A stretch of DNA of 64,000 bases from Methyloradius palustris (GCF_019703875.1 NZ_AP024110.1:2455912-2519911); one strand, 5' to 3'. Shown: positions 7,451-48,177, counted from the stretch's first letter. Program-made: numbers and translations. Notes: generated by a model from the letters alone, not told the origin.

Positions 7451-7766
7451 CTACATTTCCCTCTTTTATTTTTTAATAACCCAAGGTGATTGGTCACAAA
7501 AACACCCAACTTTATCTTACATAACTTCTGGCATTGCTGGAGTACGCCATTTGACGTATTAGCCGAGGCTGGCTAAAAGAGTGTCTAATTATGCTGAATA
7601 TTAAGCACGGCTTGTGCCTAGTTATAGGTTGATTCTGACTTGAGTTGCAATAATGCTTAAAAGAATCTACGATTAAAAGTGGGGATTTTGCAGCCTCCCC
7701 CGTTTCAAGACGCCTAGCGTCCAAGGACTGCTCCAACTGAGGCTTAATAACCTTGAAGGAGAGTTC

Positions 7767-12155: not shown

Positions 12156-12636
12156 GCCGCCCCAATCTCGCCGAGGGCAATCGTGCAATATCATCATCAT
12201 GATGGCGATGGCCGCCGCCGTAGGCGCCAGCTTCTGGCTCGAACGGTGCCTGTTCATCCGTTAATGTCATGCCCAAACCAACTAGCATGTCTTTTAGTAC
12301 ATGGTCTTGTTCCAGTAACAGCCAGCCATCGCCCACTTGCAATGGCACATGCCGATTGCCCAAATGATAAGCAGCGCCCATCAAGGCTTGCTGGTTTGAT
12401 GCTGTTACGCGAGTAACAGGCTCATTCGCTGCGACTATCTGCACCACGCGCCCGTCTTCCGCTTTCAACAAATCACCGCCACGCAGTATCGTGCCGCGAT
12501 CCAACATCAATGCGGCTTCCAGACCAGACTGCAGTGTGACCCGCAGACGACTTCTCTGGCGCAAATCAAACGGTAAAAGCAGTTGATCATCGATCTGGTG
12601 AAGTCCGGTCAGGCGTTGTGTAATATTTAGCATCAA
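12148..12636 (-). CDS. ureE: urease accessory metallochaperone UreE
   Basis: 162 aa; UreE N- and C-domain pattern; only a short His cluster ([10 protein letters not shown]) at the C-terminus. Confidence 0.85.
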
Positions 12637-14348
12637 AATAAAAAGTAACGTTGTGCCATTGGCAGCACGGATGCTGGCTCGCAGGTCAGCAACATGCCAT
12701 CGGCACGAACAATATAGGTTTCAGGGTCGACATCAATCACGGGCATCCAATTGTTATGAATCATGTCTTTTTTCTTTACGGTACGGGTACCGCTCACGGC
12801 CACAAGTGGCTTTTGCAGATTCAGCGCTTGGACTTCGGGATTTTCTAAACCAGCCTTTGAAACAAAAGTGACTGAAGTTTTTAGGCCACCGCCATAGGCA
12901 CCAAACATATGGCGATAATGCACAGGTTGTGGCGTAGGAATCGATGCATTGGGGTCGCCCATTGCGGCGGCGGCAATCATGCCGCCTTTGAGTATAGTCG
13001 ATGGTTTTACCCCGAAAAATGCAGGTCGCCAAATCACCAAATCAGCCAGTTTGCCGACTTCTATTGAACCAACGGTATGGGCAATACCATGTGTCAATGC
13101 TGGGTTGATGGTGTACTTTGCGATATAACGTTTCACGCGAAAGTTATCGTTACGCTCGGTATCTTCAGCCAGCGCGCCGCGCTGCATTTTCATTTTGTGC
13201 GCGGTTTGCCAGGTGCGAATGATCACTTCACCCACACGCCCCATGGCTTGTGAATCGGATGACATCATCGAGAACGCGCCGAGGTCATGCAGAATATCTT
13301 CTGCCGCAATCGTCTCGCGGCGAATGCGACTCTCGGCAAAGGCAATATCTTCGGCAATCGCGGGGTCAAGATGGTGGCAAACCATCAGCATATCCAGATG
13401 CTCGTCGATGGTATTGACAGTGAATGGCCGCGTTGGATTGGTAGAGGATGGCAATACGTTGACATAGCCAGCGGCTTTAATGATGTCTGGTGCGTGACCG
13501 CCTCCAGCGCCCTCTGTGTGGAATGTATGGATGGTGCGATCTTTAAACGCAGCGATTGTGGTTTCAACAAAACCAGATTCATTCAGCGTATCGCTATGAA
13601 TCGCTACCTGAATATCCATCTCTTCAGCAACGCTTAGGCAGTTATCAATAGCAGCGGGCGTTGTGCCCCAATCTTCATGCAGCTTAAGCCCGACGACACC
13701 TGCTTTGACTTGTTCTATCAAAGGCTCAGGCAGGCTGACATTGCCTTTACCCAGAAAACCAAGATTCATCGGGAAGGCATCTGCCGCTTGCAACATGCGA
13801 TGTATATGCCAAGGCCCTGGCGTACAAGTTGTAGCAAACGTACCCGTGGCAGGCCCAGTACCGCCGCCTATCATGGTGGTGACGCCAGACATCAGCGCCT
13901 CTTCAATCTGTTGCGGGCAGATGAAGTGAATGTGCGTGTCAATGCCGCCGGCGGTAACAATCATGCCTTCACCCGCGATAATTTCGGTACCTGCGCCAAT
14001 CGGTATCGTGACGCCTGGCTGTATATCTGGATTGCCAGCTTTGCCGATAGCCGAGATACGCCCGCCCTTGATACCAATGTCCGCTTTCACAATGCCCCAA
14101 TGATCGACAATCAAAGCATTGGTGATGACTGTATCAGCCACATCTTTGGCATTGAGTTGGCCTTGCCCCATACCATCACGGATAACCTTGCCACCACCAA
14201 ATTTCACTTCTTCGCCATAACAGCCAGCGAGCAAGGTGTAATCTTTTTCTACTTCTATCCAGAGTTCAGTGTCGGCCAGACGCACACAATCTCCCGTGGT
14301 CGGGCCAAACATTTCGGCATAGGCTCGCTTGTCTATCTTCACACTCAT
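12633..14348 (-). CDS. ureC: urease alpha subunit
   Basis: 571 aa; canonical UreC ([20 protein letters not shown]..., GGIDTHIHF, carbamylated-Lys region, MVCHHLD). Confidence 0.97.
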
Positions 14349-14653
14349 TTAAGCGCCCCCATCACCTTGCCTGCAAACCCATACACTTTGCGATCACCTG
14401 CTAATGCAACTAATTGCACCGTGCGGGTTTGGCCTGGTTCAAAGCGCACAGCCGTACCTGCAGCAATATCTAGCCGAAATCCATAAGCTGCTTGCCTGTT
14501 GAACGACAGCGCCTCGTTGGTCTCAAAAAAGTGATAGTGCGAGCCAATTTGGATTGGGCGATCACCTGTATTTGAGACATCAATGGTGACTGTCGGCCGA
14601 TCTACATTCAGCGTGATTTCACCCGACTCAATTTTCATTTCACCTGGAATCAT
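14345..14653 (-). CDS. ureB: urease beta subunit
   Basis: 102 aa; MIPGEM...EITLN...[13 protein letters not shown]. Confidence 0.95.
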
Positions 14654-14663
14654 ATGCGCCTCA

Positions 14664-14818
14664 AAAATGGATTTCCATGAGATAAGTTAAGGATAAAAAT
14701 GGATGAAGTACGAGGCGCCCGGAGCGCAGCAGCCGAGACAGTACAATAAGTACGGCAAGGTTGTGAGCACCGCGCAACGAAGTAATTCGCCATTTTGATT
14801 ATTAAATTACTCATGGAA
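14664..14818. repeat. intercistronic structured repeat element, copy A (core 14701-14791; arms TTCCATGAG / CTCATGGAA)
   Basis: About 85% identical over 91 nt to 18847-18937; flanked by a perfect 9-bp inverted repeat whose right arm overlaps the ureA stop codon and whose left arm abuts the ureB RBS. Confidence 0.7.
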
Positions 14819-15113
14819 TGGGTTGGTGGACAGTAACAAGTTTCGTTCCATCTGGGAAAGTCGCTTCAATCTGGATATCGGGAATCATCTCGGGAATACC
14901 TTCCATCACGTCATCACGTGTGAGTAAAGTAGCGCCATATCCCATAAGATATGCCACAGTCTGGCCATCGCGAGCGCCTTCCATGATGGCGGCAGAAATA
15001 TAGGCAATCGCCTCGGGATAATTCAGCTTAAGGCCGCGTGCCTTGCGCCGCTCGGCCAGTAGACCAGCGGTAAAAATCAGCAATTTATCTTTTTCGCGTG
15101 GGGTAAGTTCCAT
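14811..15113 (-). CDS. ureA: urease gamma subunit
   Basis: 100 aa; [35 protein letters not shown]... canonical UreA. Confidence 0.95.
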
Positions 15114-15135
15114 AATTCTATTCTCTCAAATTCAA

Positions 15136-16020
15136 TCAAGTGCTCCAGATGCGTGGTCTGGAACTTTGTCTTGTGGCATACCAAGGCCGTAGTATGTGCC
15201 ACAACGCTTCAAAATACTGTCGCGCGGATTGCGCTGAATGGCCAATATAACGTGCAGAAAAAATCTGCGGTAATGCTGTCAGGCCAATTTTTGAGGACTG
15301 ACCTGCCGAAACTTCTCTACAAGCTGCAATGATCTCTGCTGGCACAGCACCTGCCGCAACGACGAAACTGGCACTCACTACCTGCCCGCGCAAACCAGCC
15401 ATTGAAGCAAACGCTCGACTTTGTGGTGATAGATTTGTGCGCTCGTTCCAGATCAATTGATTGTTGCGCCTGATGGCCAAACGTTGATTGAGCTTACCTT
15501 GCAGCCATTCTTCATTGCTGGCTTGACGGCCAAAACAGAGAATATCCCACCCAGCAAACACAGCCTGTCCACCGAGATTAATCTCTGCTGATAAGGCAGT
15601 GTCCGAACCCTCAAACAATATATTCTCTTGCGGTAGCCACTCCAGTATCGCACTATCTTGTAAATCAAAATTCAGTTGCTGGCTGGCCTGCCGACCGTTG
15701 GACTTGTACCACTTTCCTGCACCTGGCGTGGTGAGCAGCACATGTGAGTGATTACTTTGCTGCACATTGAGCGTTAAGGCATCACCGCCAGCAACACCGC
15801 CCGGCGGGTGCACGATAATCGCATGGCTGACGACCTCACCTTCTGGATACAACACTTTCTGGATGACCAAAGGGCCTTCATGCTGCTTACGGGCTAATAC
15901 CGTGCGTCCATTTTTCTCTACGAAATCCAGGCTTAGTTTTGCGCGCCAGTTGAGGCTAGCAACTGCTGCTTGTCTTGCCGACAATTCTGACTGCTGTAAA
16001 TAGGCATCATCCATCAACAC
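15136..16020 (-). CDS. ureD: urease accessory protein UreD/UreH
   Basis: 294 aa; UreD-family pattern; position directly upstream of ureA. Confidence 0.85.
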   Translation of the reverse strand: MLMDDAYLQQSELSARQAAVASLNWRAKLSLDFVEKNGRTVLARKQHEGPLVIQKVLYPEGEVVSHAIIVHPPGGVAGGDALTLNVQQSNHSHVLLTTPGAGKWYKSNGRQASQQLNFDLQDSAILEWLPQENILFEGSDTALSAEINLGGQAVFAGWDILCFGRQASNEEWLQGKLNQRLAIRRNNQLIWNERTNLSPQSRAFASMAGLRGQVVSASFVVAAGAVPAEIIAACREVSAGQSSKIGLTALPQIFSARYIGHSAQSARQYFEALWHILRPWYATRQSSRPRIWST

Positions 16021-16065
16021 ATATTGCCACGAATCTGGGTCAGTTCGTAATATTGGAAGCAGAAA

Positions 16066-16764
16066 CTATAGCGCAACAAAGTTACGGATATTGTCTTTTT
16101 CCATATCTTCGCCCAGACCGTTTTTCACCACTTGGCCGCGTGACATCACCAGATAATGATCAGCCAGCGCCTCGGCGAAATCGTAATATTGTTCTACCAG
16201 CAGAATCGCCATATCACCACGCTCAGAAAGCATTTTGATCACGCGTTCGATGTCTTTGATAATAGAAGGCTGAATGCCTTCAGTCGGCTCATCGAGTATC
16301 AATAATTTAGGCCGAGAAATCAGCGCGCGGGCAATCGCCAATTGTTGTTGTTGCCCGCCAGAAAGATCGCCGCCACGTCTATACAGCATCTGCTTCAGCA
16401 CGGGGAACATGTCATAAATGTCTTCAGGTATCTGCGATGCCGCTTTGCCTTTCACTACAGCCAAACCCATGTGCAAATTTTCTTCTACCGTAAGGCGGCT
16501 GAATATCTCACGGCCTTGTGGCACATAGGCCATGCCTAAAGCGGCACGTTCGTATGGTTTGAGGTTGGTAATGTCTTTACCATCCAGAAAAATGTGGCCC
16601 GTTTTAACAGGCAACACGCCCATCAGGCATTTGAGTAAGGTGGTTTTTCCTACACCGTTACGGCCTAGCAATACGGTACAGGCACTCATAGGCGCAGCAA
16701 GTGAAACATCACGAAGAATCTGGCTGCCGCCGTAGAATTGGTTGATGGCTTTTACTTCTAACAT
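16066..16764 (-). CDS. urtE: urea ABC transporter ATP-binding protein UrtE
   Basis: 232 aa LivF-like ATPase (GRNGVGKTT, LSGGQQQ, LILDEP) at the end of the urt operon. Confidence 0.9.
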   Translation of the reverse strand: MLEVKAINQFYGGSQILRDVSLAAPMSACTVLLGRNGVGKTTLLKCLMGVLPVKTGHIFLDGKDITNLKPYERAALGMAYVPQGREIFSRLTVEENLHMGLAVVKGKAASQIPEDIYDMFPVLKQMLYRRGGDLSGGQQQQLAIARALISRPKLLILDEPTEGIQPSIIKDIERVIKMLSERGDMAILLVEQYYDFAEALADHYLVMSRGQVVKNGLGEDMEKDNIRNFVAL

Positions 16765-16769
16765 ATTGA

Positions 16770-17591
16770 TTAGCGCCCCAAATAAACTTCTATGACTTGT
16801 TCGTTAGACTGCACTTGCTCCATCGAACCCTCAGCAAGCACGCTGCCTTGATGCAGCACGGTCACTTTGCGTGCGATGCTATTTACGAAATCCATGTCGT
16901 GTTCAACCACCATAATTGAATGCTTGCCTGCCAGGCTATTTAACAACTCGGCAGTACGTTCGGTTTCATGATCGGTCATACCGGCCACAGGCTCATCCAG
17001 CAGCAAAAGTTTAGGTTCTTGCGCCAGCAACATGCCGATTTCAAGCCACTGTTTTTGCCCGTGCGATAACAAGCCTGAGCGCATTTTGTGGGAATCTTGC
17101 AGGTTGATGGTAGTGAGAATTTCGGCAATACGGTCCAGCTGCTCGCCAGAAAGCTTGCCGAATAATGAGTTCCAGATACCTTTATCAGTCTTCATCGCCA
17201 ATTCGAGATTTTCAAATACCGTATGGTTTTCAAACACCGTTGGCTTCTGAAATTTACGTCCGATGCCAGCCTGCGCAATTTGCGGCTCGGTCATCTTGGA
17301 GCAATCCATGGTTTGCCCAAAAAACACCGTGCCTGTATCTGGCCGCGTTTTGCCAGTGATGACGTCCATCATGGTGGTCTTACCGGCGCCATTAGGGCCG
17401 ATAATGCAGCGTAGTTCGCCTACATCAATTGATAGCGATAATTTGTTAAGTGCCCTGAATCCATCAAAACTAACGGTGATGTCTTCCAGATAAAGCACCA
17501 CACCATGCGTGGTATCTAGCACACCAGGCTGGTAGAGACTGCCACTCCCACGAACGTCAGTGGCAGGTTGCGAAATACTATTTTCAACCAT
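16770..17591 (-). CDS. urtD: urea ABC transporter ATP-binding protein UrtD
   Basis: 273 aa LivG-like ATPase with N-terminal extension typical of UrtD (GPNGAGKTT, LSHGQKQ, LLLDEP). Confidence 0.9.
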   Translation of the reverse strand: MVENSISQPATDVRGSGSLYQPGVLDTTHGVVLYLEDITVSFDGFRALNKLSLSIDVGELRCIIGPNGAGKTTMMDVITGKTRPDTGTVFFGQTMDCSKMTEPQIAQAGIGRKFQKPTVFENHTVFENLELAMKTDKGIWNSLFGKLSGEQLDRIAEILTTINLQDSHKMRSGLLSHGQKQWLEIGMLLAQEPKLLLLDEPVAGMTDHETERTAELLNSLAGKHSIMVVEHDMDFVNSIARKVTVLHQGSVLAEGSMEQVQSNEQVIEVYLGR

Positions 17592-18760
17592 TATGCTTGC
17601 CCCGCTTCTCCGTCAACTGCGTTGCTTGGTAACTCATTTTCTGTCTTCTTGGCTTTTAGTTTTGACTTCACTTTTCCAAATAAACCTAATACCCCTTGCG
17701 GTAAGTAGAGCGTTGCCAAGACAAACAACAAGCCTAAAAAGTACAGCCAATATTCAGGGAATGCCTGGGTAAAGTAGCTCTTGGCACCATTCACAATACC
17801 CGCACCCAACAATGGCCCAATCAGCGTGCCACGACCGCCGACCGCTGCCCAGATAGCAATTTCAATGGAGTTGGCTGGTGACATCTCGCTGGGGTTGATG
17901 ATGCCAACCTGCGGCACATATAAAGCCCCTGCAATACCGCAAATGACTGCAGAAAATGTCCAGATCGCCAGCTTGTAATGCAGCGGGTTGTAGCCAGAGA
18001 ACATCACTCGGGATTCTGCATCGCGTATAGCTGTGAGCACGCGGCCAAATTTACTGGTCACGATTGCACGCGAAATAATCAGGAAAGCAACCAGCAATAT
18101 GCCTGTAATCACAAACAAGGCCATGCGCATTTGCCCAGTAGTAATTGGGATATCCAGCAGGCGCTTGAAATCGGTAAAGCCATTATTACCGCCAAAGCCT
18201 GTTTCATTGCGGAAGAACAGCAGCATGAAAGCGTATGTCATGGCTTGCGTGATGATAGAAAAATAAACACCCTTGATGCGTGACCTAAAGGCAAAGTAAC
18301 CGAAGATAAAAGCCAACACGCCCGGCACCAACACCACGAGCAGCAAGGCAAACCAGAAGTGATCCGTCATCGCCCAATACCAAGGGTAAGTCTTCCAATC
18401 CAAGAACACCATAAAGTCTGGCAGATTGCTATGGTAGCTACCATCGGTGCCAATCTGGCGCATCAAGTACATACCGAATGCATAGCCACCCAGCGCAAAA
18501 AACAGGCCGTGACCTAAACTTAATATGCCTGTGTAGCCCCAAACCAAGTCCATCGCCAAGGCGACAAAGGCGTAACAAAGTATCTTGCCGCAGAGCGCTA
18601 CGGTGTAATCGGAGATATAAAAAACACTGGTTTCTGGCACCAGCAAATTAAAAACGGGGAACACCACACAGACAACAGCCAGTGCTATCGCCAGCGCCAA
18701 CCAGGCTTTACTGCTGTAAAGCCGATGTACCAGCGTTGGTTGCGGAAATTTCTCATGCAT
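17591..18760 (-). CDS. urtC: urea ABC transporter permease UrtC
   Basis: 389 aa LivM-like polytopic permease; start codon overlaps urtD stop. Confidence 0.9.
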   Translation of the reverse strand: MHEKFPQPTLVHRLYSSKAWLALAIALAVVCVVFPVFNLLVPETSVFYISDYTVALCGKILCYAFVALAMDLVWGYTGILSLGHGLFFALGGYAFGMYLMRQIGTDGSYHSNLPDFMVFLDWKTYPWYWAMTDHFWFALLLVVLVPGVLAFIFGYFAFRSRIKGVYFSIITQAMTYAFMLLFFRNETGFGGNNGFTDFKRLLDIPITTGQMRMALFVITGILLVAFLIISRAIVTSKFGRVLTAIRDAESRVMFSGYNPLHYKLAIWTFSAVICGIAGALYVPQVGIINPSEMSPANSIEIAIWAAVGGRGTLIGPLLGAGIVNGAKSYFTQAFPEYWLYFLGLLFVLATLYLPQGVLGLFGKVKSKLKAKKTENELPSNAVDGEAGQA

Positions 18761-18824
18761 GGTTTTGCTTCCTTATTACTAATGCGTTATTGGCAGCTAA
18801 TAATCTGATTTGATACTTAAAGAA

Positions 18825-18959
18825 ACGCGGAATAAGTCGTTGAGCGGGATGAAGTGCAAGGCGCACGGAACGCAGGAACCGAGACAGTACATAGAGTACG
18901 GCGAGGTTGCGAGTACCGCGCAACGCAGCAATTCGCCCGCGCAGACACTTATTCCGTGT
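18825..18959. repeat. intercistronic structured repeat element, copy B (core 18847-18937; arms ACGCGGAATAAGT / ACTTATTCCGTGT)
   Basis: Second copy of the 91-nt core, nested in a 13-bp inverted repeat (12/13 paired; the mismatch is a G.U wobble only on the plus-strand RNA); lies between urtB stop and urtC start. Confidence 0.7.
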
Positions 18960-18963
18960 TTCC

Positions 18964-20613
18964 TTAATCAATTTGCCGACCTTTGAATGCAAACAACCCT
19001 TGCGGACGTTTCTGGATAAAGATAACCACCATAACCAAAATGAATATCTTGGCCAGCACCGCACCAGCAAAGCCTTCCAGCACTTTGCTTAAAATGCCCA
19101 GGCCCATCGCTGCATAAACAGCACCCGCCAATTGGCCCACACCACCCAATACCACCACGATGAATGAATCCACAATATAGCTTTGGCCTAATGCAGGGCC
19201 TACGTTACCAATCTGCGAGAGAGCAACGCCTGCCAGGCCCGCAATACCAGAACCCAAACCAAAAGCTAGCGCATCGATCTTGCTGGTGTTCACCCCTATG
19301 CAACTCGCCATACCGCGATTCTGGGTTACTGCGCGGATAAACAAGCCAAGGCGGGTTTTGCTGATCATGAGCCAGACTAATAACAGCACACCAATCGCAA
19401 ATGCGATAATCAGTATGCGGTTGTAAGGCAGTACTAAGTTAGATGCGAATTCGATACCCCCAGACATCCAGGCTGGGTTTTCCACGCTTACGTTCTGTGC
19501 GCCAAAGATGGTACGAACGGCTTGGATAAGAATAAGACTGACACCCCATGTGGCCAATAATGTTTCGAGTGGGCGGCCATATAAAAAACGAATGACGGTT
19601 TTTTCAAGCACAATGCCAACCAGCGCAGTAATGATAAAGGCCGCTGGAATGGCTGCCAGCAGGTACCACTGGAATCCGCCAGGAAAATGCTGAATAAATA
19701 TGTTTTGCACAGCGTAAGTAACGTAGGCACCTATCATCATCATTTCACCGTGCGCCATGTTGATCACACCCATCAGGCCATACGTCACGGCCAGGCCAAG
19801 TGCGGCAAGCAGCAAAATACTGCCCAAGCTAATGCCTGTAAATAACTGGCCTAATCTATCAAACAGGGCAAGGTGGCTATCGATAGATTTCAGCGCATCT
19901 TGTATAGCTGTTTTGACTTCTGGATCCGTTTCTCCATCGGGCGCCAAGCGGGTAGATAACATTTGTTTGATATTGGCATTGGTGGCTTTTGACAAAGCTT
20001 CTGCAGCAGCTAAGCGAGTGGCTTTATCTGGGCTGGTCAGCTCAATACTGGAGCGCACTTCAGCCAGTGCATCGTGGATTTTAGATTCGGTCTCTTTGGC
20101 TTCCACTTGTTTGATAATCGCCAAGCGTGCGTCATTTGCCTCTGTTCCAAGTAAGGATTTAGCGGCATCCAGACGTACTTTGGGGTCAGTAGATAAAAGG
20201 TTGAGTGTGGCGATTGCTGCATCCAACTCTGAACCCATCTGGTTATTGTTCACTACGTCATCTGCATCTTCAGGTAGATCAACTGGCTTGCCAGTCAGTG
20301 CATCTATGGTCGCTTCATCAGTGACGATATAGACGCTCTTACCTTTAGTTTTGACTGCATCATCTTGCAGTTGCTGTAAAAATGGAATGGCACTCATGTC
20401 ACCTTTGGCCATCACAGTGTTTAATACGGCAATTCGGGGCTCGTTATCGCCTATCGCCAAGCCTATAATTTCATCGCTAGTTAATGCTGAAGCGTTTGCA
20501 GAAGCCAGTAACATCACTATTGAAAAACCCATCATTAAACGATGAATAACTGCTGATGAAACTGCCGCAAAACGGTGTTTGAATCGGATGGAAAATAACT
20601 GACTTGATGGCAT
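18964..20613 (-). CDS. urtB: urea ABC transporter permease UrtB with ~250-aa N-terminal periplasmic extension
   Basis: C-terminal 300 aa is a LivH-like permease; N-terminal part has a signal-peptide-like segment and a soluble Ala/Asp/Lys-rich domain. True start may be an internal Met (MMGFSIVMLLASANASA). Confidence 0.85.
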   Translation of the reverse strand: MPSSQLFSIRFKHRFAAVSSAVIHRLMMGFSIVMLLASANASALTSDEIIGLAIGDNEPRIAVLNTVMAKGDMSAIPFLQQLQDDAVKTKGKSVYIVTDEATIDALTGKPVDLPEDADDVVNNNQMGSELDAAIATLNLLSTDPKVRLDAAKSLLGTEANDARLAIIKQVEAKETESKIHDALAEVRSSIELTSPDKATRLAAAEALSKATNANIKQMLSTRLAPDGETDPEVKTAIQDALKSIDSHLALFDRLGQLFTGISLGSILLLAALGLAVTYGLMGVINMAHGEMMMIGAYVTYAVQNIFIQHFPGGFQWYLLAAIPAAFIITALVGIVLEKTVIRFLYGRPLETLLATWGVSLILIQAVRTIFGAQNVSVENPAWMSGGIEFASNLVLPYNRILIIAFAIGVLLLVWLMISKTRLGLFIRAVTQNRGMASCIGVNTSKIDALAFGLGSGIAGLAGVALSQIGNVGPALGQSYIVDSFIVVVLGGVGQLAGAVYAAMGLGILSKVLEGFAGAVLAKIFILVMVVIFIQKRPQGLFAFKGRQID

Positions 20614-28351: not shown

Positions 28352-28579
28352 ATGTCTAAATTACTTGGTATTTTATTAGCAGCAACTTTAAGCCTCTGTG
28401 TTGCCGGCGCTCACGCCGATGACATGAAAAAAGATGAAATGATGAAGAAGGATGAAATGTCGCACGACAGCATGAAAAAAGACGACATGATGAAGAAAGA
28501 TTCCATGTCTAAAGACAGTATGAAAAAGGATGAAATGATGAAAAAGGACGACATGAAGAAAGATGAAATGAAGCACTAA
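28352..28579 (+). CDS. secreted methionine-rich MXKDX pentapeptide-repeat protein
   Basis: Signal peptide then 11 tandem M-K-K-D-E/D/S-M units; about 24% Met in the mature 54 aa; ends KH. Confidence 0.7.
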   Translation: MSKLLGILLAATLSLCVAGAHADDMKKDEMMKKDEMSHDSMKKDDMMKKDSMSKDSMKKDEMMKKDDMKKDEMKH

Positions 28580-28632
28580 TCATTTCCTGGCATGTCAGAA
28601 CGGACTCAACTCAGTGGGAGTGAGTCCGTTTT

Positions 28633-35543: not shown

Positions 35544-35572
35544 AAAAAAGGCCGCATATGCGGCCTTTTTTC
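35544..35572 (+). terminator. rho-independent (bidirectional) terminator
   Basis: AAAAAA-GGCCGCATATGCGGCC-TTTTTT perfect hairpin; near-identical to the hairpin at 39186-39201. Confidence 0.85.
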
Positions 35573-35752
35573 ATTCCAATATTTATAATCAACTGACAGA
35601 CTCTATATACCGAACTGAACCTAGCATCGTCAATTAACTAATAAGCATATGTTTTTATTGTCAAAAAACTATTTGATAAAACAAATACTGTAGATAGTGA
35701 TTATTTATACGAAAATACAGTACAGAACACATATAAATGAAATCGAGAGCAC

Positions 35753-39177: not shown

Positions 39178-39208
39178 GAGAAAAAGGCCGCATAAGCGGC
39201 CTTTTATC
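39178..39208 (-). terminator. ssb rho-independent (bidirectional) terminator
   Basis: GGCCGCATAAGCGGCC hairpin flanked by A-run/T-run, about 30 nt after the ssb stop. Confidence 0.85.
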
Positions 39209-39232
39209 CTTACAGTTTAATTTTGATACGAG

Positions 39233-48057: not shown

Positions 48058-48090
48058 TAAAAAAGGCGGGGTAACCCGCCTTTTTTATTT
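48058..48090 (+). terminator. glnA rho-independent terminator
   Basis: AAAAAA-GGCGGG-gtaa-CCCGCC-TTTTTTATTTTT. Confidence 0.85.
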
Positions 48091-48177
48091 TTATTATTCT
48101 GCTCAAGTCCCTGCTATTCCACGAACTAGTCCGCAATCACGTTGCCTCAATATTGGTTCTCAACTAAACTAAAGTAC

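Follow-up and report, generated by a model that had tools for sequence, protein, structure and literature searches.

A 64,000-nt stretch of the Methyloradius palustris genome (GCF_019703875.1, NZ_AP024110.1:2455912-2519911), referred to here as the window, raises the question of why one sequence of about 91 nt should occur in two gaps between genes of nitrogen operons. The genes involved, all on the - strand, are ureC (12633-14348), ureB (14345-14653) and ureA (14811-15113) in one operon and urtC (17591-18760) and urtB (18964-20613) in the other. The two repeats, copy A in the ureA/ureB gap and copy B in the urtB/urtC gap, have the same orientation, on the strand opposite to the genes. The initial annotation of the window proposed that the sequence was confined to these two operons, and offered as candidates a small mobile repeat, a structure for mRNA processing, stability or translational coupling, and a cis-antisense small RNA (sRNA). 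It is argued below, with a probability of roughly 0.85, that both repeats are copies of an IS5-type miniature inverted-repeat transposable element (MITE) of ~143 bp, with a hairpin core of the Correia type and an interior under selection, which the ure and urt mRNAs carry as a passenger.

The two 91-nt cores proved to be real, since an ungapped comparison of 14701-14791 (copy A, +) with 18847-18937 (copy B, +), within the limits first given for them, revealed 85% identity. It was also confirmed that the 64 kb held no further copy: a profile of 55 family members matched only A and B (E<=10), and the 29-nt apex pattern had just these two matches, with 0 expected in shuffles. The apex motif was CCGAGACAGTAC-AATAA-GTACGGCAAGG in copy A (14733-14760, +) and CCGAGACAGTAC-ATAGA-GTACGGCGAGG in copy B (18879-18906, +), where tandem G.A mismatches lie beneath a GTAC/GTAC stem in an arrangement common to Correia elements. 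Copy B is a complete element of 143 nt at 18821-18963 (+; profile match 18814-18967), equal in length to the full copies L024, L037 and L058 (L numbers denote loci outside the window). Its + strand is the purine-rich, better-folding one, and the urt mRNA holds the complement. Copy A is an old copy, whose whole hairpin extends approximately over 14669-14819 (+) according to its fold, a profile match at 14683-14813 and its orthologues (L033, L057, L082, L110-L115), and whose outer arms are diverged and AT-rich.

The inverted repeats described around the cores were found as well. In copy A they are TTCCATGAG on the ureB-proximal side (14673-14681, +) and CTCATGGAA (14810-14818, +), which overlaps the ureA stop codon (14811-14813) and spans it together with the last two codons (I-P-stop). 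In copy B, ACGCGGAATAAGT (18825-18837) and ACTTATTCCGTGT (18947-18959) pair with one G.T that is a wobble on the + strand alone. This repeat is longer than first described, comprising an IS5-like left end AGAAACGCGGAATAAGT (18821-18837, +) and a right end ACTTATTCCGTGTTTCC (18947-18963, +) that are complementary at 16/17 positions. It is not private to copy B either, as had been proposed, because equal ends occur at non-urt loci of other genomes (L022, L028, L077). The observation that both left flanks contain ATAAGT and both right flanks its complement was correct except in one detail: the right flank of copy A lacks ACTTAT and has AAATTAC.

That the element is mobile was revealed by relatives whose contigs were obtained by looking up the exact UreA protein of the window. 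Two of them, L110 and L111 (~86% and ~79% nucleotide identity to the window across the cluster, with the same UreA protein), contain copy A, and their urtB-urtC gaps, of 41 and 66 nt, include a single TTAA. Written in mRNA sense, the empty site is ...GGCAAATTGA TTAA GTCTGC... (in L110, GATTAAGT), and the window reads ...GGCAAATTGA TTAA, followed by the element (GGAAACACGG...CGCGTTTCT) and by TTAA GT.... A single TTAA in the empty site against TTAA-element-TTAA in the window thus delimits the element proper to 18821-18963, with the target-site duplication at 18817-18820 (left copy) and 18964-18967 (right copy). The duplicated TTAA on the right regenerates the urtB stop codon (TAA, 18964-18966, - strand). 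An additional 18 nt beside copy B (18799-18816; ATCAAATCAGATTATTAG in mRNA sense) were missing from the L110 empty site, and represent either an indel or sequence that arrived with the insertion of copy B.

The same kind of duplication was observed at other loci, and at least 12 insertions were flanked by matched 4-bp direct repeats of the YTAR type. These were CTAA (L037, L058, L122/L134), TTAG (L024, L120, L121), CTAG (L011/L126, L137, and also a different MITE in L123), TTAA (L045/L132, L124) and, as the one exception to YTAR, TTGA (L077). The non-palindromic repeats among them indicate direct duplications that lie outside the inverted repeat. The target-duplication motif of IS5 is likewise (C/T)TA(A/G) (PMC5009759). 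YTAR holds TAA or TAG and so readily offers stop codons as targets. This explains why copies insert there, with one arm overlapping the stop that ends the upstream gene, and how the urtB stop was regenerated. The termini follow the pattern GGAAR...GAAYAAGT and agree with the 16-bp type of IS5-group terminal repeat, GGAAGGTGCGAA(T/C)AAG. When they were compared with the inverted repeats of IS5A (GGAAGGTGCGAATAAGC / GGAAGGTGCGAACAAGT, taken from E. coli K-12, NC_000913.3), the ends GGAAGCCCTGAACAAGT of L045 and GGAAACACGGAATAAGT of copy B were identical at 12-13 of 16-17 positions.

Among the candidates initially listed, the small MITE/REP-type element was therefore the right one, given the terminal inverted repeats, the target duplication, the filled and empty sites and the many unrelated loci. 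The element is small (143 nt), multi-copy and non-coding, the sole short open reading frame (ORF) through it not being conserved; a small ORF from the conserved ATG of GGATGAAGT was rejected as coding because the loop varies and the ORF ends at different positions among copies. On its sequence, the element is classified as an IS5-type MITE, because its termini are IS5-like and its duplications are 4-bp YTAR repeats.

A different kind of movement was weighed against this assignment, in which a REPIN-like hairpin is moved by a single-copy HUH transposase (Y1, RAYT/IS200-type) and the IS5-like ends are coincidental. The long imperfect hairpin of ~100-140 nt with conserved mismatches, the preservation of one strand's fold, the long persistence and conservation, and the location mostly between convergent or co-directional genes would all be compatible with such an origin. 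However, HUH-mediated insertion is generally known to make no target duplication, unlike the element, whose termini are IS5-like and whose 4-bp YTAR duplications are direct and clean. Moreover, all-against-all clustering of 548 neighbouring ORFs from 100 loci recovered only housekeeping and syntenic families and no recurrent transposase such as Y1, and the conserved GTAG motif was absent. Movement by an HUH enzyme was hence regarded as very improbable.

How widely the element is spread was examined by a genome scan that took one genome per species and used the apex pattern CCGAGACAGTACNNNNNGTACGGC. The scan returned 101 loci, of which ~55 were in Methylophilaceae with the whole element, the hosts being Methylophilus, Methylotenera, Novimethylophilus, Methylobacillus, Ca. 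Methylopumilus and LSUCC0135. The element was also found in Thiobacillus and Pseudogulbenkiania, and as a full copy with 74% identity in a Nitrosomonas conjugative plasmid. Five near-identical copies occupied unrelated loci in one metagenome-assembled genome (MAG) (L011, L037, L045, L058, L100), in which 4-5 copies had the exact apex. A profile search of the 8-kb flanks, ~440 kb in total, added ~10 copies that were diverged, internally deleted or nested. The family density is thus ~1 copy per 30-40 kb, so that two copies in 64 kb are unremarkable. Searches of viruses gave nothing of this kind, since the eight matches in viral contigs were all due to chance and had unrelated flanks, and a phage search with a Correia copy as the query yielded no match.

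The genes next to these copies include nrdA/nrdB, xseA, crp, VIT1, rplY, smpB, a Mur-ligase-family gene and Ham1, and also nadA, proS, an ABC permease gene, gap, an aldehyde dehydrogenase gene, spoU and a gltD-like gene. The idea of a sequence confined to two nitrogen operons was refuted by this diversity of unrelated neighbours (nrdAB, xseA, crp, rplY, smpB, nadA, proS and gap among them). By crude ORF calling, copies lay between co-directional genes (21 in antisense, 11 in sense) or convergent genes (nine), and hardly ever between divergent ones (one).

Some copies deserve separate mention. The full Nitrosomonas copy (L116:8001-8146; NZ_CP133084.1 67437-67582) comes from Nitrosomonas sp. sh817, where it lies on a MOBP/MPF_T plasmid with parA on one side and the gene of an ATP-binding protein on the other; this conjugative plasmid is a possible vehicle for the spread of the element among Betaproteobacteria. 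In the nrdA-nrdB gap, the orientation of the element is opposite in L013/L105/L010 and L014/L021/L075, which represent two Methylophilus lineages. Both orientations share the truncated boundaries AATAAGTG...CACTTAT, and the flip results either from two separate insertions or from an inversion in situ, an event that has been reported for Correia elements. An insertion of ~55 nt (GAAAACGGAGTTTCAGTGTAGGCTAAC...) was nested in some copies (L105:3145-3360, L021:6760-6975, L010), a small additional hairpin was present in the 3' arm of L120 and L121, and a module TTAAGACGCG(A/T)AGCG followed the apex in both Novimethylophilus (L009) and Thermoleophilia-type copies. In-frame insertions into genes were also observed. 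In the recB of Pseudomonas/Aquipseudomonas (L029:5650-5770, L088, L049), a same-apex relative lies in frame between helicase motifs II (DEFQD) and III (GDPKQAIYAFRGAD), where it adds ~45 hydrophilic residues at an identical position in three species. Others were found in guaA (L078:1388-3106, LSUCC0135) and in a prolyl oligopeptidase gene (L083:2162-4378, Pseudogulbenkiania), with intact Pfam domains on either side of the insertion in both ORFs. The coding strand was the purine-rich strand in all three cases.

If the element is a mobile repeat, the question remains of whether its hairpin is a conserved structure. Each strand folds as one long imperfect hairpin, with predicted energies of -40.2 (A) and -65.6 (B) kcal/mol for the + strand and of -34.2 and -61.5 kcal/mol for the mRNA sense. 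In an alignment of 55 copies, RNAalifold predicted 34 pairs, 23 of which presented compensatory changes. Paired cells amounted to 95.3%, against 80.6% in column shuffles (0/500 shuffles equalled it) and <=42% when the partners were slid, and double-change cells numbered 255 against 64 expected. Tandem G.A pairs recurred in CGAG/CGAG contexts, including the apex (CC-GA-G-A-C-A-GUAC / GUAC-G-GC-GA-GG), and at one hairpin position a U.G pair was the commonest state. The initial annotation had set a generic repeat, to be recognised by many scattered copies and absent covariation, against a conserved structure. The copies at unrelated loci were indeed many and the covariation was strong, and both descriptions therefore apply: the element is mobile and generic as a repeat, and conserved as a structure.

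The changes also indicate which strand is folded. On the purine-rich strand, the ratio of G.U to A.C was 97:27 in the 55-copy alignment and 17:0 in an independent set of 24 Thermoleophilia-type copies. Among the copy A orthologues, which show compensatory double changes in six pairs, all eight one-sided changes (8/8) gave G.T on the + strand and A.C in mRNA sense. The remark that the mismatch of copy B pairs only in plus-strand RNA extends in this way to the whole family (97:27, 8:0 and 17:0), and the excess of G.U indicates that the preserved fold is that of the purine-rich strand, here the + strand, antisense to ure and urt.

This result bears directly on the proposal that the element is a cis-acting RNA structure of the ure and urt polycistronic mRNAs, selected for nitrogen-operon expression through processing, stability or translational coupling. 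Both copies lie between cistrons and are transcribed together with them, the mRNA-sense hairpins have z scores of -2.7 (A) and -6.3 (B), copy A is kept in all close relatives, and Correia hairpins are cleaved by RNase III (PMC2649163). The terminal repeats of copy B are predicted to form a near-perfect ~19-bp duplex in the mRNA, which by analogy could be an RNase III substrate. Nevertheless, the one-sided changes in copy A break the mRNA-sense pairing and maintain that of the opposite strand, ~20 unrelated housekeeping genes have the element in both orientations and even in frame, and relatives with an otherwise intact urt operon are devoid of copy B. A processing or coupling structure in these mRNAs was thus left unsupported and is quite improbable. 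An intrinsic terminator was not indicated either, since no T-run follows the hairpin and a terminator scan placed none on the elements, the terminator-like sites around them being no more than chance would give.

A second proposal, which the strand preference would favour, is that an sRNA from the purine-rich strand, either encoded by the element or cis-antisense to ure and urt, is the selected product. The fold is kept on that strand in three independent sets, tandem G.A pairs with a conserved U.G are characteristic of RNAs with a defined structure, and paired and unpaired positions are alike conserved in situ. Furthermore, Correia elements carry promoters (PMC10969869; PMC2649163), and a weak promoter-like site (9/12 matches) ends at 18817 on the + strand, just upstream of copy B. 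Against this, no conserved sigma-70-like promoter was evident inside the element, promoter-like sites around the elements were at chance level (5 found, 6.1 expected), and no Rfam covariance model matched the elements of the window or of 10 loci of other lineages (gathering score or E<=10). In addition, G.T and sheared G.A pairs are stable in single-stranded DNA too. An sRNA as the selected product was considered unlikely on balance.

The third question was whether the interior is maintained at all or is simply young. Copy A was present in every relative sharing the locus (L033, L057, L082, L110-L115) with equal diverged, AT-rich arms, which points to a single old insertion; in Ca. Methylopumilus (L095) the ureA-ureB gap is empty and has 12 nt. 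When differences between the window and each relative in the 143-nt element were compared with those at four-fold degenerate sites of ureA and ureB, the element differed by 3% against 29% in L113, 6% against 37% in L110, 8% against 63% in L111, 11% against 59% in L082 and 14% against 67% in L033. A second orthologous set was provided by the nrdA-nrdB gap of five Methylophilus genomes, in which the copies are without the outer 10 nt of their ends and should consequently be immobile. These copies differed by 1.6-3% within lineages (21-39% at four-fold sites) and by 9-11% between lineages (33-39%), and the neighbouring 60-nt non-coding flank was 60-78% identical. Altogether, orthologous copies changed 4-20x more slowly than nearby four-fold degenerate sites. 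Such slow change in situ indicates that selection maintains the interior of the element, which is under constraint and has not been left to decay.

These comparisons also bear on the simplest view of the family, as an ordinary selfish MITE without function whose conservation reflects recent insertion or gene conversion. Its heterogeneity is typical of selfish elements, with internal deletions, nested insertions, subfamilies and in-frame insertions, and copy B is missing from relatives. This view is opposed by the immobile copies, namely copy A with its decayed arms and the nrd-gap copies without their terminal 10 nt, which are 4-20x better conserved than four-fold sites and also better conserved than the adjacent non-coding flank. 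Moreover, the copy A orthologues are 86-97% alike between species and the window paralogues A and B only 85%, an order that argues against concerted evolution. A functionless element is accordingly an improbable explanation.

The outer repeat of copy A has a history of its own. The 9/9 repeat takes in the I-P-stop of ureA, and the empty-site orthologue L095 encodes I-P-stop too, which means that this arm is host sequence and that the matching arm on the ureB side cannot simply have come with the element. One possibility is that the outer repeat arose from microhomology of the host CCATGA with the element end CCCTGA and from later compensatory change. A target-site duplication was not definable for copy A because its ends are too diverged.

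Several observations weigh against the explanation preferred here. The IS5 assignment draws on two features, the similarity of the ends and the target duplication. A search for a transposase with matching ends, far from exhaustive, gave none in the window, the 130 loci, the plasmid or a metagenome terminal-repeat scan. Within it, tblastn with E. coli InsH1 gave nothing relevant, the Nitrosomonas plasmid contained Tn3, IS110 and IS3 but not IS5, and the 23 loci of the metagenome scan comprised more MITE copies, the L123 MITE, solo ends and chance matches, with no transposase. In one subfamily (L055, L060) the duplication seems to be 3 bp long (TAA), and no clean duplication was present in a few copies. 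Because the scan was keyed to the apex, the seeming universality of this motif is in part an effect of ascertainment; the variants ATATC/GATAG and CCGGAATGTAC occur, with a covarying apical stem. The bias in gene orientation, 21 antisense to 11 sense, is not significant. Finally, the slow change might in principle result from gene conversion that repeatedly imposed a conserved consensus of the family, although copy A with its locus-specific arms speaks against such a process. As for L123 (Ga0255097_1000104, near 603 on the reverse strand), it is another MITE of ~150 nt with the terminal repeat GGAAGCCCTGAACAAGTG, a CTAG duplication and an unrelated interior; having the same ends and a different interior, it indicates that ends and interior cargo are separable modules.

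The mechanism that would follow from an IS5-type MITE with a selected interior can be outlined as follows. An IS5-group DDE transposase, supplied in trans, would move the element. Insertion at YTAR leads to the 4-bp duplication and to frequent landing on stop codons. Copy A inserted once, long ago, and copy B more recently, in the neighbouring operon. Compensatory change maintains the hairpin, whose wobble and tandem G.A pairs indicate that the preserved fold is that of the purine-rich strand. The conserved interior may act in single-stranded, folded form, be it DNA or purine-rich-strand RNA, and its role would have nothing to do with nitrogen regulation. Within the mRNAs of ure and urt, the element would be a passenger transcribed in its weaker-folding sense. 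In fact, both copies leave reading frames, stop codons and ribosome-binding sites intact. The tempting idea of a nitrogen-operon regulator is hereby removed from the annotation of the window.

Other features of the window can be recorded briefly. An Rfam match to 5_ureB_sRNA (13898-14181, +, 115.7 bits) lies antisense inside ureC, and most likely reflects conservation of urease coding sequence with the Helicobacter locus and is not evidence of an sRNA. A chrB-b RNA motif was matched at 7680-7731 (+) with 46.5 bits, above the Rfam gathering threshold of 36.5. Tandem repeats of 48 nt (ATGAAAAAAGATGAAATGATGAAGAAGG...) at 28424-28587 apparently encode a repeat peptide rich in K, D, E and M, and three alike hairpins (AAAAAGGCCGC-loop-GCGGCCTTTTTT) at 35545-35578, 39181-39214 and 48060-48093 resemble bidirectional intrinsic terminators.

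The comparison with known systems finally indicates to which class of elements the two repeats belong. With IS5, the element shares its termini (GGAAG....GAA(C/T)AAGT) and the 4-bp YTAR duplication (PMC5009759), and it differs in having no transposase gene, in its unrelated interior with a conserved hairpin, and in the absence of an autonomous partner among the loci searched. REP and REPIN elements are likewise multi-copy extragenic hairpins downstream of genes, with long persistence and conservation; the present element differs from these RAYT-associated hairpins by its terminal inverted repeats, and a REPIN/RAYT identity was rejected on the target duplications and on the lack of a recurrent neighbour protein family in 100 loci or of a GTAG motif. 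Rickettsia palindromic elements (RPE) are also palindromic and can enter genes in frame, whereas most copies here are intergenic. ERIC/IRU elements are likewise imperfect palindromes (~127 bp) of transcribed intergenic regions, and their apex and ends differ from those of the element; effects on mRNA stability were reported for them (PMC10969869). An integron attC site was also rejected, because the hairpin base carries IS5-like repeats and not R''/R' boxes (RYYYAAC...GTTRRRY), and there is no cassette context.

The closest likeness is with the Correia elements of Neisseria (CREE/NEMIS), which have been regarded as Neisseria-specific since 1986 and for which no mobilising enzyme or cognate transposase is known (PMC2649163). 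The apex scan returned a Neisseria MAG locus (L063) that carries the Correia terminal repeat, whose sequence is published (PMC5039591). Canonical gonococcal elements, taken from a 2.17-Mb N. gonorrhoeae record, contain ...CAGGACAAGGCGACGAAGCCGCAGACAGTACAAATAGTACGGCAAGGCGAGGCAACGCCGTACTGG..., with an insertion of ~50 nt after GTACG in the long form. When the Methylophilaceae profile was run on an unselected 40-kb stretch of this genome, seven matches were obtained (E 1e-7 to 2e-2), 5/7 of them at listed Correia elements. The alignment spans CAAGGCG...AGACAGTACAAATAGTACGGCAAGG...GCAACGC, with 25/26 positions identical around the apex. The two families thus have a homologous core (AGACAGTAC-AAATA-GTACGGC(A/G)AGG with CAAGGCG and GCAACGC), like size classes (~105-155 bp), a long imperfect palindrome and a directional core. 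Their short and long forms are also parallel, since the ~50-nt 3'-arm insertion of Correia elements has a counterpart of ~55 nt in Methylophilaceae (L010, L021, L105). Both occupy intergenic, co-transcribed sites, both can disrupt or enter coding sequences, and a cognate transposase is known for neither.

The differences concern mainly the ends and the hosts. Neither window copy, nor any copy from Methylophilaceae, has the 26-bp Correia terminal repeat (TATAGTGGATTAA...), which is present in L063 and L117. The element has IS5-like ends, arms ~20 nt longer on each side and a 4-bp YTAR duplication, in contrast to the TA duplication reported for Correia elements, and it occurs in Methylophilaceae and other Betaproteobacteria. 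An IHF-site motif (CTTCAGCACCTTA), a feature of long Correia forms, was not seen in the element. Duplication of the target sequence itself is a documented feature of Correia insertion (PMC2649163). In the literature searched, no report was found of Correia-like elements outside Neisseria or of the apex sequence. The apex was followed by GAGG or AAGG in 88/104 matches, against ~1% by chance. Multi-copy hairpins with the same apex were found in Thermoleophilia/Gaiellaceae MAGs, one copy having CTAG-flanked ends CCGCTCTGGGG...CCCAGAGCGG, and in Oligoflexales, a deltaproteobacterial MAG, a Verrucomicrobia MAG and Pseudomonas. The subterminal TTTAAATTCAGGCAAGG of the Oligoflexales copies resembles the Correia TTTAAATCAGGACAAGG.

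A broader interpretation, which we hold only tentatively, is that the purine-rich hairpin is a functional module of folded DNA or RNA, carried by different transposon ends across phyla and held by purifying selection at the level of the host or the element. The ends would then be IS5-like in Methylophilaceae, Correia repeats in Neisseria and the CTAG-flanked CCGCTCTGGGG in Thermoleophilia, with further forms in Oligoflexales, Pseudomonas and the Verrucomicrobia MAG, and Correia elements would be one branch of a widespread, unrecognised class. The strong conservation in situ and the pairing specific to one strand suggest that the hairpin does something, as has been argued for REP/REPIN elements, which makes it a candidate for a new class of structured DNA or RNA. 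It is the core, and not the ends, that is conserved across lineages. For the Correia elements, the existence of relatives that combine this core with IS5-type ends and YTAR duplications gives a concrete lead, open to testing, as to what kind of transposase moves them.

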